64,000 bases of DNA, from the NCBI GenBank assembly GCA_035714115.1, contig DASTMO010000033.1, positions 29,451 through 93,450 of the forward strand, written 5' to 3'. A program made the position numbers and the translations under genes. Within the stretch, counting starts at the first letter, position 1; each line of letters starts with the position of its first letter. Positions 21,208 to 30,202 of the stretch are shown here, piece after piece. The stretch is from Alphaproteobacteria bacterium. Lineage in GTDB: Bacteria; Pseudomonadota; Alphaproteobacteria; SMXQ01. The notes below the pieces were generated by a model, which was not told the origin of the DNA, made no database searches, and saw only the letters and a program-made list of their open reading frames with translations.

Positions 21208-21733
21208 GTGGGGATGAGATCCGAGGGCTGGGCAAACGAACGCGACGAAGGGACGCGACGAAAACGAAAGGCACGCAAATCAGGTGGGGGGCTTCTGTTG
21301 CCCGGCGCCCCCCGAGCCGCGCTTACCTATTAGGCAGCGAGTGCAACGCGATTGTCGTTGGCACTTATCAAACGACCCGATAACGGCGGTATCATGCCGG
21401 GCGAAAAGTCTACCTTTACCACGCGTGTCGATCCTATTTCGCCCCCATGGACCGGCCCTTCTCGGAAGGACCGGTGAAGATGGTGGAGGCGCCGGGTACC
21501 GCCCCCGGGTCCACTACGCTTATTCCATAAACCGTTTATCGCCATAGTCGGTTGCCCGACCCTTAAAATATAAGGTGTTTCGGGGGGATTTGAAAGGGCA
21601 GGGCCGGAACCGGGTTCCGAAGGTTTTCCACAGGCTTAAGGGCGCGCTGGCGGTTTTATTCTGCGCGGTAAGCCGGTAAAGTTCCGGCCGCCTACCGGCC
21701 GCGCCCCGCGGCCGCTTATCCCGGAGTTGTTGG

Positions 21734-22675
21734 ATGCCCTTGAGTCCCGAGCAGCAGGCCGAAATCGAATCGGCCCGCGCCCAGTCCGCCGCCACGCGCC
21801 GTCCGACCGCTCCCGCCCTCGAGGAGATCCTCTACACCGCCCTGCCGGTGCTCGATCATGGTTTCGTGCGCGTCGTCGATTACATGGGCGACGATGCCGC
21901 CGTCGTGCAGGCCGCGCGCGTTTCCTACGGCAAGGGCACCAAGCGCGTCAGCGAGGACGCCGGCCTCATCAACTATTTGATGCGCCATCGCCATACGACG
22001 CCGTTCGAGATGTGCGAGATCAAGTACCACATCAAGCTGCCGATCTTCGTCGCGCGCCAGTGGATCCGCCATCGCACCGCCAACGTGAACGAATATTCGG
22101 CGCGCTACTCGATCCTCGACAACGAATTCTACATCCCCAAGGCCGAGCAACTCGGCGCGCAGTCCAAATCCAACCGCCAGGGCCGCGCCGACGCGCTGAC
22201 CGGCGCCGACGCCGCGCGCGTGCTGCAGATCCTGCGTGAGGACTCGCAGCAGACCTACGATCACTACGCCGAGATGCTGAACGAGAACGAGAAGGGCGAG
22301 GTGATCGATCCCAACCGCACGGGGCTGGCGCGCGAATTGGCGCGCATGAACCTGACGGTCAACTTCTATACCCAATGGTATTGGAAGGTCGATCTGCACA
22401 ACCTTCTGCATTTCCTCAGCTTGCGCGCCGATCCGCATGCGCAATACGAGATTCGTGTTTATGCCGACGCGATGCTGGAAACGGTGAAGCGTTGGGTGCC
22501 GCTGGTGTGCGACGCCTTCCTGCAATATCGCATGGGCGGCGTGCATCTGTCGGAGAAGGCGCTGCAGGCCGTCAAGCGCATGCTGAACGGCGAGAAGGTC
22601 GATCAGAAGGACAGCGGCCTGTCGCTTCGCGAATGGCGCGAGACGATGGACAAGCTCGGGATCGAGCAGAAGTAG
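21734..22675 (+). CDS. thyX: FAD-dependent thymidylate synthase
   Basis: '[27 protein letters not shown]', '[43 protein letters not shown]' (ThyX RHRxxS motif). Confidence 0.9.
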
Positions 22676-22682
22676 GTCTGTA

Positions 22683-23951
22683 TTAGTGCGGTAAAATAGT
22701 AGAAATGTGTGGCATCATTCCCGTCACTTTCAAAAACCAATCAACAAAATAGTTGACGGTACCTTCGGCAGCCTTCTTTTGAAGATGATCGAGAAGAGTT
22801 TGAAAGAACGTCGGCTTCTCTTTTTTGATGAGGGCGACTGCTTCTTGGAATGCGGCGTTGTTATCAATTTTTCCAGCCTCTACAACCTGCTCAATAAGTA
22901 GCAAGGCGGAGCGGACTCGCTCATCTGAACTCTCTATAACTTTCAAAATTAATGCGCGCCATTCTCGGGCGTCGTCACGTTCCTGCTGTACCACTTGGCC
23001 CATATATTCGAGGCTTCGCTGATCGTTGGCGCGATAGCGCGTTAACTGCTCGCGCAAATCGGCATTATCTCGCGCTGATAACATTAGTAAATCGCGTTGA
23101 TGTCTAACCTCCATCTCCGCGATTTGAAGGACGTGTTTCAATTCCATTATATCAGTTGGGTTAGTCAAAAAATCTTCAGGGCGGCGCCTTCCCGTAATGA
23201 CTTCATGGTAATCATTAAGTGTCTGTTCAATCACTTCTCGAGCGCCATCTGGTGTGTCGATAATTAATCGAACGAGCAGGTCTTCCTGCTCAATTCGAAC
23301 TTTTACATTAATGTCGGGGTACTTCTGCCGAATAACAGTGGCGAAGTGGGTTAGAATTTCCATGCCGGCTTTATAATAGTCGGGAGGAAATTGAATTGAT
23401 GTGTAGATGATGTTTTTGAAGTCGTTTGAAACGGAATCCGGCGATGTGTTGTCGATAATTGCATAGGCTGCCTCCGCAAATGCTTTGAGAAGCATTAGGT
23501 GGCAATAGACAGAGATTTTGAGGCCGCGTGATTTACCGCCTGAGAAATCTAAGAGCTTATAATAATCAAGGTTGATGCGGGTTAGATCTGCCTTTCCAGC
23601 ATCCTTGTTTCCCTCGGGAGTGCTGGCGGCCTCGAGTGCCGTGCTGACTAATTTTTCTAAACTAGCTTTAAACTTATCGTGTGCTGGTAATGCCGCCCCG
23701 ACCTGGTTGTGGAAGTACTCCCAGTCGATGCAGTTTCTTAGATTGCGCTGAATAGATAAGACCTCAAACTTAATGCGCTTTTGGTCCAAATCTTCCTTTG
23801 CGCGAGTTTGTAAATACTCCAGGCTTTCGCGAGTTTTGAAAATATTATCCATGAAATTGACCACCGTTCCTCCATCTCGCACGAGATATGTAATTGAGGT
23901 TTCGGCAGGTAGTTTTGATAGCACTAAAAATTTGAAGAAACGGTCAAACAT
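22683..23951 (-). CDS. Hypothetical protein, 422 aa, encoded by a strongly AT-rich (atypical-composition) insert; no recognisable catalytic motif
   Basis: Long uninterrupted ORF in a ~1.35-kb stretch whose GC content is far below flanks. Preferred start is second ATG (MFDRFFKF...) preceded by GGGGGGA at -6; first ATG at 23969 lacks an RBS. C-terminal half is predicted helical/coiled-coil (ELKHVLQIAEMEVRHQRDLLMLSARDNADLREQLTRY...). Confidence 0.7.
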   Translation of the reverse strand: MFDRFFKFLVLSKLPAETSITYLVRDGGTVVNFMDNIFKTRESLEYLQTRAKEDLDQKRIKFEVLSIQRNLRNCIDWEYFHNQVGAALPAHDKFKASLEKLVSTALEAASTPEGNKDAGKADLTRINLDYYKLLDFSGGKSRGLKISVYCHLMLLKAFAEAAYAIIDNTSPDSVSNDFKNIIYTSIQFPPDYYKAGMEILTHFATVIRQKYPDINVKVRIEQEDLLVRLIIDTPDGAREVIEQTLNDYHEVITGRRRPEDFLTNPTDIMELKHVLQIAEMEVRHQRDLLMLSARDNADLREQLTRYRANDQRSLEYMGQVVQQERDDAREWRALILKVIESSDERVRSALLLIEQVVEAGKIDNNAAFQEAVALIKKEKPTFFQTLLDHLQKKAAEGTVNYFVDWFLKVTGMMPHISTILPH

Positions 23952-24025
23952 AGTGTCCCCCCGGATCATCTACGTATTGAGTTTGTGGTGCTTCTTAAGA
24001 CTAAACGGGCTGCAATTAAGGGTCA

Positions 24026-25177
24026 TCAGCTAATGACGATGCGCGGGGCTTTGCGCGCCGCGCCGTCGATCTTCTCCCAGACCTTCTTGGCGATGGCGCG
24101 ATAGGCCTTGGCTTGCGGGCTGTCGGGCTGCGTCGCCGTGATCGGCGTGCCGGCGTCCGAGGTCTCGCGAATCGCGATATGGAGCGGCACTTCGCCGAGG
24201 CATTCGACGCCGATCTTCTCGGCTTCGGCCTTGGCGCCGCCATGTCCGAAGATGTGGGTTTCGTGGTTGCAGTTCGGGCAGACGAAGGTGCTCATGTTCT
24301 CGACGATGCCGAGCAGCGGCACTTCGACTTTCTTGAACATGTTGATGCCCTTGCGCGCATCCAAGAGCGCGATGTCCTGCGGCGTCGAGACGATCACCGC
24401 GCCGGCCAGTGGCACGCGCTGCGCCATGGTGAGCTGGGCGTCGCCGGTGCCGGGCGGCATGTCGACGATCAGCACGTCCAACTCGTCCCAGGCGACGTCG
24501 CGCAGCAATTGCTCCAACGCGCCGATCACCATCGGGCCGCGCCAGATCATTGGCGAATCTTCCGGCACGATGAAGCCCATCGACATGGCCTTGAGGCCAT
24601 AAGCCTCCATCGGCTTGAGGCGCTTGTCGCCGGTCGGCTCGGGCTTGCCCTTGATGCCGAGCAGGCGCGGCACCGAGGGGCCGTAGATGTCGGCGTCCAA
24701 GAGCCCGACCTTCTTGCCTTCGGCGACGAGGCCCAAGGCCAGGTTCACGGCGACGGTGGACTTGCCGACGCCGCCCTTGCCCGAGGCCACCGCGACGATG
24801 TGCTTCACACCCGGCACGAAGGGCTTGGCGGCGGGGGCTTGTCCGGTGGCGGCCTGGCGGCGCGCCGTCTGCACATCGGAGCCTGCTGCGGCAGGCGCGG
24901 CTTTTTCCGCCGCCCCCGCGCCGGAGGCGCGTTCCGCTGTGAGCACGGCGCTGACCGAGGTGACGCCGGGAAGGCGCATCACCGCGTCCTCGGCGGCTTT
25001 GCGCAGCGGCTCCATATGCGGGCCGCGCTGCGCGTCGACTTCGATCATGAAGGCGACGTTGCCGCCGCGCAGGGTCACGCCCTTAACCATGTCGAGGCTG
25101 ACGATGCTGCCGCCGCGCTCATTGTCGATGACGGTGTGAAGCGCCGCGAGAACGTCGCGGTCGGTAAGGCCGGCCAT
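24026..25177 (-). CDS. apbC: Fe-S cluster carrier ATPase Mrp/ApbC (NBP35 family)
   Basis: Start re-set to MAGLTDRDVLAALHTV; 'IVAVASGKGGVGKST' deviant Walker A, 'CPNCNHE' C-motif, N-terminal MIP18-like domain. Confidence 0.9.
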   Translation of the reverse strand: MAGLTDRDVLAALHTVIDNERGGSIVSLDMVKGVTLRGGNVAFMIEVDAQRGPHMEPLRKAAEDAVMRLPGVTSVSAVLTAERASGAGAAEKAAPAAAGSDVQTARRQAATGQAPAAKPFVPGVKHIVAVASGKGGVGKSTVAVNLALGLVAEGKKVGLLDADIYGPSVPRLLGIKGKPEPTGDKRLKPMEAYGLKAMSMGFIVPEDSPMIWRGPMVIGALEQLLRDVAWDELDVLIVDMPPGTGDAQLTMAQRVPLAGAVIVSTPQDIALLDARKGINMFKKVEVPLLGIVENMSTFVCPNCNHETHIFGHGGAKAEAEKIGVECLGEVPLHIAIRETSDAGTPITATQPDSPQAKAYRAIAKKVWEKIDGAARKAPRIVIS

Positions 25178-25336
25178 CTTGAAAACCGCTGTAATTACAC
25201 AATTTATTGACCTGTCGCGGCGTTCGCTTCGCGTTGCGCCAGGGGTCAAGCTGTCATATAAGGCAGTACCCAATTTGTTGCAAAGACATGGTTTCCGTCC
25301 CTCGGGGGTGCGAAGCCCGACACGAAGGAAAAATAC

Positions 25337-29275: not shown

Positions 29276-30202
29276 TCAGTCCGGCACATATTCTTCGGTG
29301 CCGAGGAATTCGTCCTGGCGATAGCCTTGCAGGTAGAGGAGGGCGGTGAGGTCGCCATGGTTGACGCGGATCTTCGCCGCCGCCGCCACTGTGGGCTTGG
29401 CGTGATAGGCGACGCCGAGACCGGCGGCCTGCAACATGGGCAGATCGTTCGCGCCGTCGCCGACCGACATGGTCTGCGACAGATCGAGATGGTTCTGCTG
29501 CGCCAGCGCTTCGAGCGCCGCGAGCTTGGCGTTCTTGTCGAGGATCGGCTCACGCACGGTGCCGAGAATCTGGCGGCCGTCGGTGAGCAGCTCGTTGGCC
29601 TGCTCGTAGTCGAAGCCGAGCATGGTGCGGATGTTGCGGGTGAAATAGCCGAAGCCGCCCGAGACCAGCGCGCAGAAGGCGCCATCGTTGCGCATGGTCG
29701 CGACCAGCGGGCGCGCGCCCGGCATGATCTCGACGCGCAGCATCGCTTCGTTGAGCACCGTGGCCGGCAAGCCTTTCAGCAAGGCGACGCGCTCGCGCAC
29801 CGCGGCGGCGAAGTCCAGCTCGCCGTTCATCGCGCGCGTGGTGATGTCGGCGACCTTGTCCTTGAGGCCGACATAGTCGGCCAGCTCGTCGAGCATTTCG
29901 TTGCGGATGATCGTCGATTCCATGTCGGCGACCAGCAGCTTCTTCTGGCGGCCCGCGGCGGGCAATTCGTTGACGTCGACCGGGCGGCCTTCGAGGCGTT
30001 GGCGCACGGCGGCATGGGCGTCGTCGGCCCGCAGCTGCGTCTGGGTCTGGAAGGCGATCTCGGCGGCGATGCCGGGCGCGAGCCAGACGATGGGGCCGGG
30101 TTCGGTGCCGCGCTCATGCAGGATGGCGCGCGCGATCTCGGCGGTTTCCGCGTCGAGTTGCGGTTTTTCGGGATTGCCGATCAGGCTGAGGATATGTTCC
30201 AT
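29276..30202 (-). CDS. serB: Phosphoserine phosphatase
   Basis: Start re-set to MEHILSLIGN; HAD motifs 'LLVADMESTII' (DxD/T-like), 'GDGANDLPML'. Confidence 0.85.
   Translation of the reverse strand: MEHILSLIGNPEKPQLDAETAEIARAILHERGTEPGPIVWLAPGIAAEIAFQTQTQLRADDAHAAVRQRLEGRPVDVNELPAAGRQKKLLVADMESTIIRNEMLDELADYVGLKDKVADITTRAMNGELDFAAAVRERVALLKGLPATVLNEAMLRVEIMPGARPLVATMRNDGAFCALVSGGFGYFTRNIRTMLGFDYEQANELLTDGRQILGTVREPILDKNAKLAALEALAQQNHLDLSQTMSVGDGANDLPMLQAAGLGVAYHAKPTVAAAAKIRVNHGDLTALLYLQGYRQDEFLGTEEYVPD

Follow-up and report, generated by a model that had tools for sequence, protein, structure and literature searches.

A single gene of foreign origin at the thyX-apbC junction of an alphaproteobacterial genome and its undescribed modular protein family

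Described constant modules and the present family

The closest conceptual analogue of the protein described here is TRADD-N, a small alpha+beta constant module that is flanked by variable effector, sensor and repeat domains (Kaur, Burroughs, Iyer & Aravind, eLife 2020 PMC7159879; eLife 2021 PMC8195603). The partners of TRADD-N include TIR domains, peptidases of the trypsin and caspase types, EADs, pentapeptide repeats, PAS and HTH domains; its occurrence is chiefly in cyanobacteria and other complex bacteria, and it is predicted to be non-enzymatic and to act in protein-protein interaction (PMC7159879; PMC8195603). Another point of comparison is CtRoco, the Roco protein of Chlorobium tepidum and a bacterial model protein for LRRK2 (PDB 8R4B/8R4C/8R4D), in which a C-terminal stretch of about 150 residues is said to be of 'unknown structure', was invisible in cryo-electron microscopy and was removed for crystallisation (PMC11052575). 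In this study we have analysed a window of 64 kb (the whole stretch of DNA examined, positions 29,451 to 93,450 of contig DASTMO010000033.1 in assembly GCA_035714115.1) from a metagenome-assembled genome (MAG) of an alphaproteobacterium, in which positions 22676-24025, between thyX and apbC, hold a gene of low guanine+cytosine (GC) content for a protein of 422 amino acids. Our comparisons show that this segment is a single foreign gene, acquired horizontally between thyX and apbC of the chromosome, and they place its product in a large, so far undescribed modular family that is defined by a conserved alpha/beta domain of ~110 amino acids, mostly joined to a helical region. The protein would be of a known kind, a modular protein of conflict or signalling that is mobile and has a constant, adaptor-like domain at its centre; what appears to be new is the domain itself, for which we found neither a curated model nor a paper.

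The window protein has no match in Pfam, NCBIfam, PHROGs or PADLOC, and none of these databases (PADLOC as PADLOC-DB 2.0.0) holds a model covering the module; a literature search for the module motif strings returned nothing relevant. A word-indexed search of 5.8 billion proteins found, apart from the identical MAG protein, only three homologues, with identities of 60%, 39% and, over one third, 39%, and searches of this type, with 4, 4 and 18 matches, badly under-reported the family. An exhaustive search with a hidden Markov model, seeded with an alignment of the window protein and its homologues, recovered 953 cluster representatives at E <= 1e-3 and 427 at E <= 1e-30. As delimited by these searches, we call it the 'IEFPPEY...VRIEQ' module family and give its positions in the numbering of the window protein; the members with a named source belong to Thermodesulfobacteriota, Desulfobacteraceae and the cyanobacterium Trichocoleus. 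An earlier reading of this DNA, made from the letters alone (hereafter the sequence-only reading), had called the protein domain-less. That description does not hold, as the protein carries a strongly conserved module common to at least 953 protein clusters, which merely lacks a Pfam model.

The part that members have in common is the central and C-terminal two thirds, and their N-termini differ. Conservation is highest over window residues 178-290 (~110 amino acids), where the short motif IxFPPxY..AG..IL..F...YPD..VKVRIEQ...G..E..L..Y can be recognised within the core consensus RSIEFPPEYxQAGxSILxYFGTVLRxKYPDxxAKVRIEQEGLxVRMIIETPxGxxEIIEKxLxEYGLVVTGKxxPE...ELKxELRIA...IExQKELL. Across 150 sequences, F203, Q222 and G236 are invariant and another 14 positions are at least 90% conserved (I186, F188, G196, I199, L200, Y211, P212, I220, E221, E242, L245, Y248, G254 and L275); the window protein carries all 3 invariant and all 14 near-invariant residues. 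In the window protein the alpha/beta core itself spans residues 178-262 (23166..23420, minus strand) and reads IQFPPDYYKAG...YPDINVKVRIEQ...DG..E..E..L..Y. An AlphaFold2 run on a 4-sequence alignment was unusable, with a mean predicted local distance difference test score (pLDDT) of 50.5, and the model from the 150-sequence alignment was used instead (pLDDT 80.1 overall, >90 over most of residues 181-400). This model predicts a beta-alpha-beta-beta-alpha core with the elements beta(181-187), alpha(190-210), beta(217-223), beta(226-232) and alpha(238-252), at pLDDT 87-98. The core is followed by a C-terminal helical region of residues 263-422 (22686..23165, minus strand), which consists of a 75-residue helix (265-339), four shorter helices and a conserved tail, ..NY..DW....P.., that aligns to the family consensus N.ia.Wc.......P. 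Confidence is high for the helices at 265-410, with pLDDT mostly >88 to residue 400, and the long helical C-terminal half proposed in the sequence-only reading agrees with the model.

Ahead of the core, residues 1-177 (23421..23951, minus strand) form an all-helical region that is specific to the window-type subfamily, has no family match and is modelled at pLDDT 56-77. It is the least conserved part: identity to the homologues P0002, P0003 and P0004 is 51, 29 and 20% over these 177 residues and 79, 60 and 48% over the core. With homologues, with every invariant residue kept and with a core conserved far above its N-terminus, the open reading frame (ORF) is, judged by its conservation, a real gene under constraint. 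Neither a transmembrane nor a strongly hydrophobic segment was found in the window protein (maximum Kyte-Doolittle 19-residue score 1.45), and its charge shows no marked bias; the protein is intact and, by these predictions, soluble and not a membrane protein. We also considered an alpha-pore-forming toxin of the ClyA/Hbl/MakA type or a membrane effector and rejected both, as neither a hydrophobic membrane-inserting segment nor a specific fold match was found. Foldseek returned no significant fold match for the protein, the weak ones being small alpha+beta sandwiches (Pcc1, the aIF2alpha C-terminal domain, KH and an ACT-containing PGDH), all at E >0.03.

The helical C-terminal region with its conserved tail is present in roughly four fifths of the top 150 matches, most matches reaching profile position about 350 or beyond. 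About one fifth of the matches have the core without the helical tail, for example in the arrangements TIR-core-Lcl_C, trypsin-core and ClpX-ZnF-core, and short forms such as XRE-HTH+core and ClpX-ZnF+core also exist; core and tail are therefore separable domains. Among 107 representatives, the N-terminal fusion partners are pentapeptide repeats in 20, REC in 15, a ClpX zinc finger in 4, TIR in 4, GAF in 3, a sigma54-type AAA+/lid in 3 and HisKA in 2, with single cases of EAD8, Cas_NE0113, PIN_4, LRR and PAS. Across these architectures the core is 38-75% identical to that of the window protein. PADLOC matches of family members arise through the N-terminal partner domains only (CARF/Csx1, RtcR-like, SAVED-TIR, ThsB-like TIR and SduA). 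The commonest class, with 34 of 152 sequences, is about 450 amino acids long and starts with MYIxxVISYxgAW; it consists of P0008-P0012 and 29 others, includes the loci L086 5416-6777, L093 5419-6768 and L096 1457-2833, and is the class to which the plasmid and prophage members belong. Its N-terminal domain of ~200 amino acids has the consensus MyI..ViSy..aW..l...el.dI...gW...g..K...ln.Wlf...PLs...PFlilG. This domain matches no Pfam or PADLOC family (PADLOC hits were marginal, E 0.004-0.026), nor any PHROGs family in the three members searched there, and an alignment inspected for motifs of the nuclease type gave no convincing catalytic motif.

The likeness to TRADD-N lies in the constant alpha+beta module and in a partner repertoire that overlaps strongly with that of the present family. 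The two differ in motif and domain order and perhaps in fold. TRADD-N has a four-stranded RRM/ACT-like fold, whereas the present core has three predicted strands (181-187, 217-223, 226-232) and two helices before the long helix. TRADD-N carries a conserved tiny-serine ('uS') motif in the beta2-beta3 turn (PMC8195603), whereas the turn here is I-E-Q-(E/D)-G-L, with no conserved serine or cysteine. The present family, unlike TRADD-N, also has N-terminal pentapeptide repeats and a helical region after the core. Pfam TRADD_N (PF09034) matched neither the full window protein at E <= 1 nor any of 30 cores at E <= 10, and TRADD was not among the PDB sequence matches. Membership in the TRADD-N superfamily was thus rejected, with the motif replaced by E-Q-(E/D)-G (near-invariant E221, invariant Q222) and no profile match.

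A search of PDB sequences with the family profile of the C-terminal region gave one meaningful match, residues 946-1106 of CtRoco (8r4b_A, E = 5.4e-8). The helical C-terminal regions are alike down to a terminal tail of the '..kLa..YN.vA.f..LP.VP' type, and the homology is real. CtRoco differs in having LRR-Roc-COR ahead of the tail and no alpha/beta core, and the window protein has no GTPase. A Roco (Roc-COR) GTPase was rejected on the same grounds, as the window protein has no P-loop or GTPase match and only the region after COR is common to both. Since the CtRoco tail has neither a known structure nor a known function, the homology transfers no function to the present family.

Two further candidates and one class of systems complete the comparison. 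DinI has the same predicted order, beta-alpha-beta-beta-alpha, with '(F/Y)PD' before beta2, and 7 of the 30 cores gave weak Pfam DinI matches, none of which reached the gathering score (best E = 0.009). A DinI-like family was nevertheless rejected, as hhalign against Escherichia coli DinI gave a probability of 0.3% and E = 0.2 and DinI was not among the Foldseek matches; we take the resemblance to be one of chance. EACC1 is defined as a conserved transmembrane helix and was rejected because the window protein has none. Defence cargo in P2/P4 hotspots and defence islands (RosmerTA neighbours) is similar in position, in that genes of the family are solitary and low in GC and in many cases lie, on the opposite strand, amid conserved genes of a phage or element. 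Its likeness extends to the neighbours, which include integrase, toxin-antitoxin, NERD, methyltransferase and RmrA-like genes, and to the window copy as a one-gene insertion into a housekeeping junction. Such cargo differs in that PADLOC-DB 2.0.0 has no model for the module and the window copy lies outside any recognisable mobile element. A known anti-phage defence system was rejected for the window protein itself, which gave zero PADLOC-DB 2.0.0 matches at E <= 10.

A single-gene insertion between thyX and apbC

The 64-kb window has a mean GC of 64.6%, and positions 22676-24025 are the sole stretch in it below 55%. In 300-bp windows, GC is 0.41-0.49 across about 22600-24100 and 0.59-0.73 on both flanks; in 1300-bp windows, the locus minimum of 0.450 lies 10.6 standard deviations below the rest (mean 0.651, standard deviation 0.019; z = -10.6). 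The edges are sharp. In 40-bp windows GC falls between 22640 and 22680 and recovers at 24020, and these edges coincide with the thyX stop codon, which ends at 22675, and the apbC stop codon, which starts at 24026. The low-GC segment (about 45%) thus fills the whole interval between the two stops. The ORF has a GC of 0.449, with 0.55, 0.32 and 0.47 at the first, second and third codon positions, against third-position values (GC3) of 0.83-0.87 in thyX, apbC, hflK and the upstream gene for a 214-amino-acid protein. Both windowed GC and GC3 agree with the sequence-only reading, which had noticed an abrupt drop in composition for one gene, from stop to stop.

We scanned species-representative genomes with ThyX and obtained 80 loci with a ThyX 71-84% identical to that of the window (unclassified Alphaproteobacteria, Reyranella, Stellaceae, Dongia and others), the nearest being an unclassified alphaproteobacterial MAG at 84%, followed by Reyranella and Stellaceae at 72-77%. 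The order 214-amino-acid gene, thyX (forward), apbC (reverse), hflK (forward) is conserved widely among these loci, and tblastn detected no homologue of the ORF in any of the 80. The window is collinear with three of them (L004, L026 and L043) from about 17 to 30 kb, and the sole break is 22676-24025. The spacer from stop to stop is 1 bp in L079, 34 bp in L043, 36 bp with a hairpin in L054, 39 bp in L026 and 126 bp in L010; other genomes have 0.3-5.6 kb of unrelated genes at the junction, mostly of native GC (transporters, cupin, ThiE, an enolase-superfamily protein). The expectation that thyX and apbC abut in relatives is therefore borne out in the four genomes with spacers of 1-39 bp and not in general, the distance varying from 0 to 5.6 kb. 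Since the gene content varies so much among genomes, the site is permissive and variable. Two genomes carry further low-GC cargo there, L021 (0.39 versus 0.53-0.56) and L080 (0.46 versus 0.56), and foreign genes seem to have landed at this junction repeatedly. At L021 2559-4789 we noted a 186-amino-acid protein with a repeat-containing look (Sel1/TPR-like by eye, unscanned) and a hydrophobic, probably membrane ORF (227 amino acids from a TTG, 203 from the first ATG). The 2712-bp thyX-apbC gap of L080 holds a 656-amino-acid protein and a 209-amino-acid ORF that was read by eye as ThiE-like.

A Logan contig from an independent assembly (SRR11449184, 2218 bp) contains part of apbC, the ORF and part of thyX, with both junctions, at 99.87% identity, and a chimera in the MAG or an assembly artefact is therefore ruled out. 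Direct repeats, inverted repeats and target-site duplications around the insert were none above chance, and no integrase or insertion sequence (IS) was found within the syntenic block around it. With the gene absent from 80 loci and synteny otherwise unbroken over ~17-30 kb, the proposal of a laterally acquired, stand-alone accessory gene stands. The two kinds of evidence that the sequence-only reading had named as speaking against it were looked for, and neither appeared: no relative carries the gene at thyX-apbC, and no housekeeping homology was found.

Genomic contexts and possible role

Close homologues of the window gene are likewise single, lower-GC genes in GC-rich contigs at unrelated loci. 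For the three further window-type homologues whose DNA could be compared, GC is 0.40 against flanks of 0.58-0.64 in L001, where the gene lies between two acyl-CoA-synthetase-like genes, 0.49 against 0.55-0.60 in L098 and 0.50 against 0.58-0.66 in L099, and the member gene falls below its flanks in most loci checked. In L099 (Logan ERR3281029, 235-1576) the protein P0006 ends early and the conserved C-terminal region continues in an overlapping ORF at 1262-1576, which may reflect either a frameshifted pseudogene or a sequencing error. A metagenome scan for close relatives yielded two short loci.

Across the wider family, several members sit on mobile elements. In a P2/Mu-like prophage of Vibrio cyclitrophicus 1F53 (PQ189388), the member (gene 41) lies on the opposite strand and adjoins the tape-measure gene. 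The viral scan, which used a narrower core alignment, gave IMG/VR contigs in which the member adjoins an integrase (L092) or a tape-measure gene (L095) or lies between P2-type baseplate genes and a YafQ/RelB pair (L093). A Thermodesulfobacteriota MAG (L102 1891-15051, JAXHTK010000004.1) holds a P4-like element with HTH_3, a DnaG zinc ribbon, a D5_N primase, an AlpA-like HTH_17 and an integrase beside secG; its cargo includes a REC+module protein, a NERD-domain protein and a weak thymidylate-synthase-like ORF. On plasmid pH1NP1 of Polaromonas sp. H1N (L086, NZ_MG869619.1), the member is directly downstream of an HTH_XRE + Peptidase_M78 protein (PADLOC RmrA, 1.9e-50), with a DNA methyltransferase and an integrase close by. 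The RmrA-like protein is preceded, at a distance of 2 nt, by a 198-amino-acid ORF, and the two genes (L086 3305-4995) are probably an unannotated RosmerTA-like pair. Other members were found in an IS-rich region (L085) and on a contig that resembles a conjugative plasmid in having ParA, relaxase and TrwB (L084).

Taken together, these data suggest that the gene encodes a horizontally acquired, non-enzymatic conflict or signalling module, a reading to which we give about an even chance. The conflict side of it is suggested by interchangeable partner domains and by the way in which the genes travel, as lone cargo of low GC on prophages, plasmids and satellite-like integrative elements. We consider it the best account because it brings together the conflict-type partners, the cargo positions, the toxin-antitoxin, NERD and RosmerTA-like neighbours and a composition that has stayed foreign. 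The conflict role might be anti-phage, anti-mobile-element or in competition between elements. A defence or abortive-infection role had already been raised by the sequence-only reading, and what now speaks for it is association: the cargo positions, these neighbours and the fusions to TIR, CARF, PIN and EAD8. The weakest step concerns chemistry. The conserved polar residues E221, Q222, E242, Y211 and Y248 do not resemble a known catalytic site, and the module stands in output position behind REC, CARF, GAF and AAA+ and elsewhere after TIR and PIN, for which reasons it is more likely a non-catalytic output or assembly device. As a mechanism, we speculate that triggering of the variable N-terminal part would cause the module to associate with itself or to bind either a conserved protein of the cell or a partner protein; sensing or regulation would fall, in the window protein, to the helical N-terminus that is specific to its subfamily. 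A wider proposal, which we put forward tentatively and think somewhat improbable, is that core and helical tail form a widespread, hitherto unrecognised constant module of conflict and immune signalling, an analogue of TRADD-N and EADs partly common to the Roco/LRRK2-like C-terminus. Such a module would couple sensors (REC, CARF, GAF/PAS, LRR, pentapeptide) and effectors (TIR, PIN, protease) to one conserved target or assembly of the cell, and the window gene would be its minimal, stand-alone version, able by itself to confer resistance to phages or mobile elements.

Several observations weigh against a role in conflict. The putative defence role is one of guilt by association at about a dozen loci, and sequenced mobile elements rarely carry a member (1 of 72,556 plasmids and 2 of 50,697 phage records). 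At the window locus there are no insertion scars, integrase or repeats to explain how the gene arrived, and neither a sensor nor an effector domain can be recognised in the N-terminus of the window protein, which is modelled with low confidence. For a component of an arms race, the core shows unusual conservation; some members, those of L087-L089 and the window itself, lie among ordinary or housekeeping genes without a partner gene; and many partners (REC, GAF, PAS, HisKA, sigma54 AAA+) are ordinary signal-transduction domains, so that a regulatory rather than an immune role is possible. The last three points also favour the main competing explanation, namely that the gene encodes an acquired signal-transduction or regulatory protein with no immune role, whose module serves as an output or dimerisation domain, for example by docking on a conserved cellular machine, and that the window gene is a stand-alone paralogue acquired by chance. 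Fusions to REC (15 of 107), GAF, PAS, HisKA and sigma54-AAA+ put the module at the usual position of an output domain, the short forms XRE-HTH+core and ClpX-ZnF+core can be read in the same way, and a core identity of 38-75% across architectures is unlike typical, fast-evolving immune sensors. However, the same module is fused to TIR, CARF/Csx1, PIN, EAD8, a trypsin-like protease and pentapeptide repeats, which is a typical conflict repertoire; its genes recur as opposite-strand prophage cargo, in a P4-like element and beside RosmerTA-like and toxin-antitoxin genes; and their GC stays persistently below that of their hosts. We regard a purely regulatory protein as rather doubtful on this balance.

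It is distinctly unlikely, in our view, that the gene is a selfish or offensive remnant of a mobile element, such as a moron, a factor that excludes superinfection or counters defence, or a toxin of the addiction type that stayed when the element was lost. Members do occur in prophages by tail genes and toxin-antitoxin pairs and in integrative elements, the window copy stands alone, without mobility genes beside it, and the close homologue P0006 looks frameshifted, suggesting decay. Yet no antitoxin-like partner adjoins the ORF in the window or in L001, the ORF is intact with all invariant residues, and the insertion is cleanly one gene with no flanking prophage remnants. Prophage morons very often protect their host, so this explanation overlaps with the conflict reading. 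The remaining possibility, an ancestral, native AT-rich gene, an assembly or binning artefact or a spurious ORF, is effectively refuted. The source is indeed a MAG, and no integrase, repeats or tRNA-type attachment site flank the segment, but 80 syntenic relatives lack the gene, whose GC3 of 0.47 contrasts with about 0.85; both junctions recur in an independent assembly; the protein has conserved homologues and belongs to a family of 953 clusters; and the AlphaFold2 model is confident over residues 181-400.

If the conflict reading is true, this island of one gene leads to a family that numbers roughly a thousand clusters at 50% identity, is described in no curated database and would be mobile conflict cargo recombining with TIR, CARF, REC, PIN, pentapeptide repeats and EAD8. 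Its conserved core could then reveal a new adaptor or output principle in bacterial immunity and might provide a first functional handle on the C-terminal region of CtRoco. The copies in the Vibrio cyclitrophicus prophage and on the Polaromonas plasmid offer cultivable entry points. Should the module prove to be merely a regulatory output domain, the locus would still be a clean, well-delimited case of horizontal insertion of a single gene into a convergent housekeeping junction.

Signals and neighbouring genes

The left flank is thyX (21734..22675, plus strand; flavin-dependent thymidylate synthase, Pfam Thy1 3.7e-58) and the right flank apbC (24026..25273, minus strand; NUBPL-type Fe-S cluster carrier ATPase, Pfam ParA (NUBPL) 8.3e-107, FeS_assembly_P 1.7e-17), both of native composition and both found in the syntenic relatives. 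The ORF for the 422-amino-acid protein, stop codon included, occupies 22683..23951 on the minus strand. Its reading frame from the first ATG is 22683-23969, where the ATG at 23969 gives 428 amino acids and that at 23951 gives 422; the public record of the identical protein ('hypothetical protein VFS04_04665', Alphaproteobacteria MAG) has 422. The GGGGGGA ribosome-binding site claimed in the sequence-only reading is indeed there, as a Shine-Dalgarno-like run at 23956..23962 (minus strand), 4 nt upstream of the ATG at 23951. The promoter claimed for the ORF is a different matter. The AT-rich spacer from the apbC stop to the first ATG is 56 nt long (23970..24025, minus strand), and a scan detected no sigma70-like promoter and no intrinsic terminator in this 56-74-nt spacer or at the 3' end of the ORF. 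Because the spacer has no consensus promoter or terminator, the ORF may be co-transcribed with apbC. Lying on the minus strand, it has the same direction as apbC and is downstream of it, and it is convergent with thyX alone, with 7 nt between the convergent stops. The earlier description of a gene between convergent thyX and apbC is therefore correct in its gene names and holds for the ORF itself only with respect to thyX.

A second ORF overlaps the segment (23773-24033, plus strand, 86 amino acids); we do not count it as a partner gene, because it is antisense within the main ORF and the upstream spacer and has no family match. A type II toxin-antitoxin or addiction module was rejected, as the low-GC segment holds a single gene with no adjoining small partner and L001 likewise has none.

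Between the 214-amino-acid gene and thyX lies a permuted (two-piece) alpha-proteobacterial transfer-messenger RNA (tmRNA) gene at 21283-21599 (minus strand; tag peptide ANDNRVALAA by ARAGORN; Rfam RF01849, 262 bits), 1.1 kb from the insert. The statement that no integrase, tRNA or IS lies nearby is thus right for integrase and IS within the syntenic block and has to be amended for this gene. Genes for tmRNA are classic integration sites of islands. Here the tmRNA gene does not account for the insertion, because its 3' end points away and thyX lies in between; with no flanking repeats and no integrase either, an integrative island targeted to the tmRNA gene was rejected. On the other side of the insert, the apbC ORF as listed starts at a TTG and has an N-terminus about 30 residues longer than most orthologues (alignments begin at query residue 30-33), and the true start of apbC is probably further downstream.

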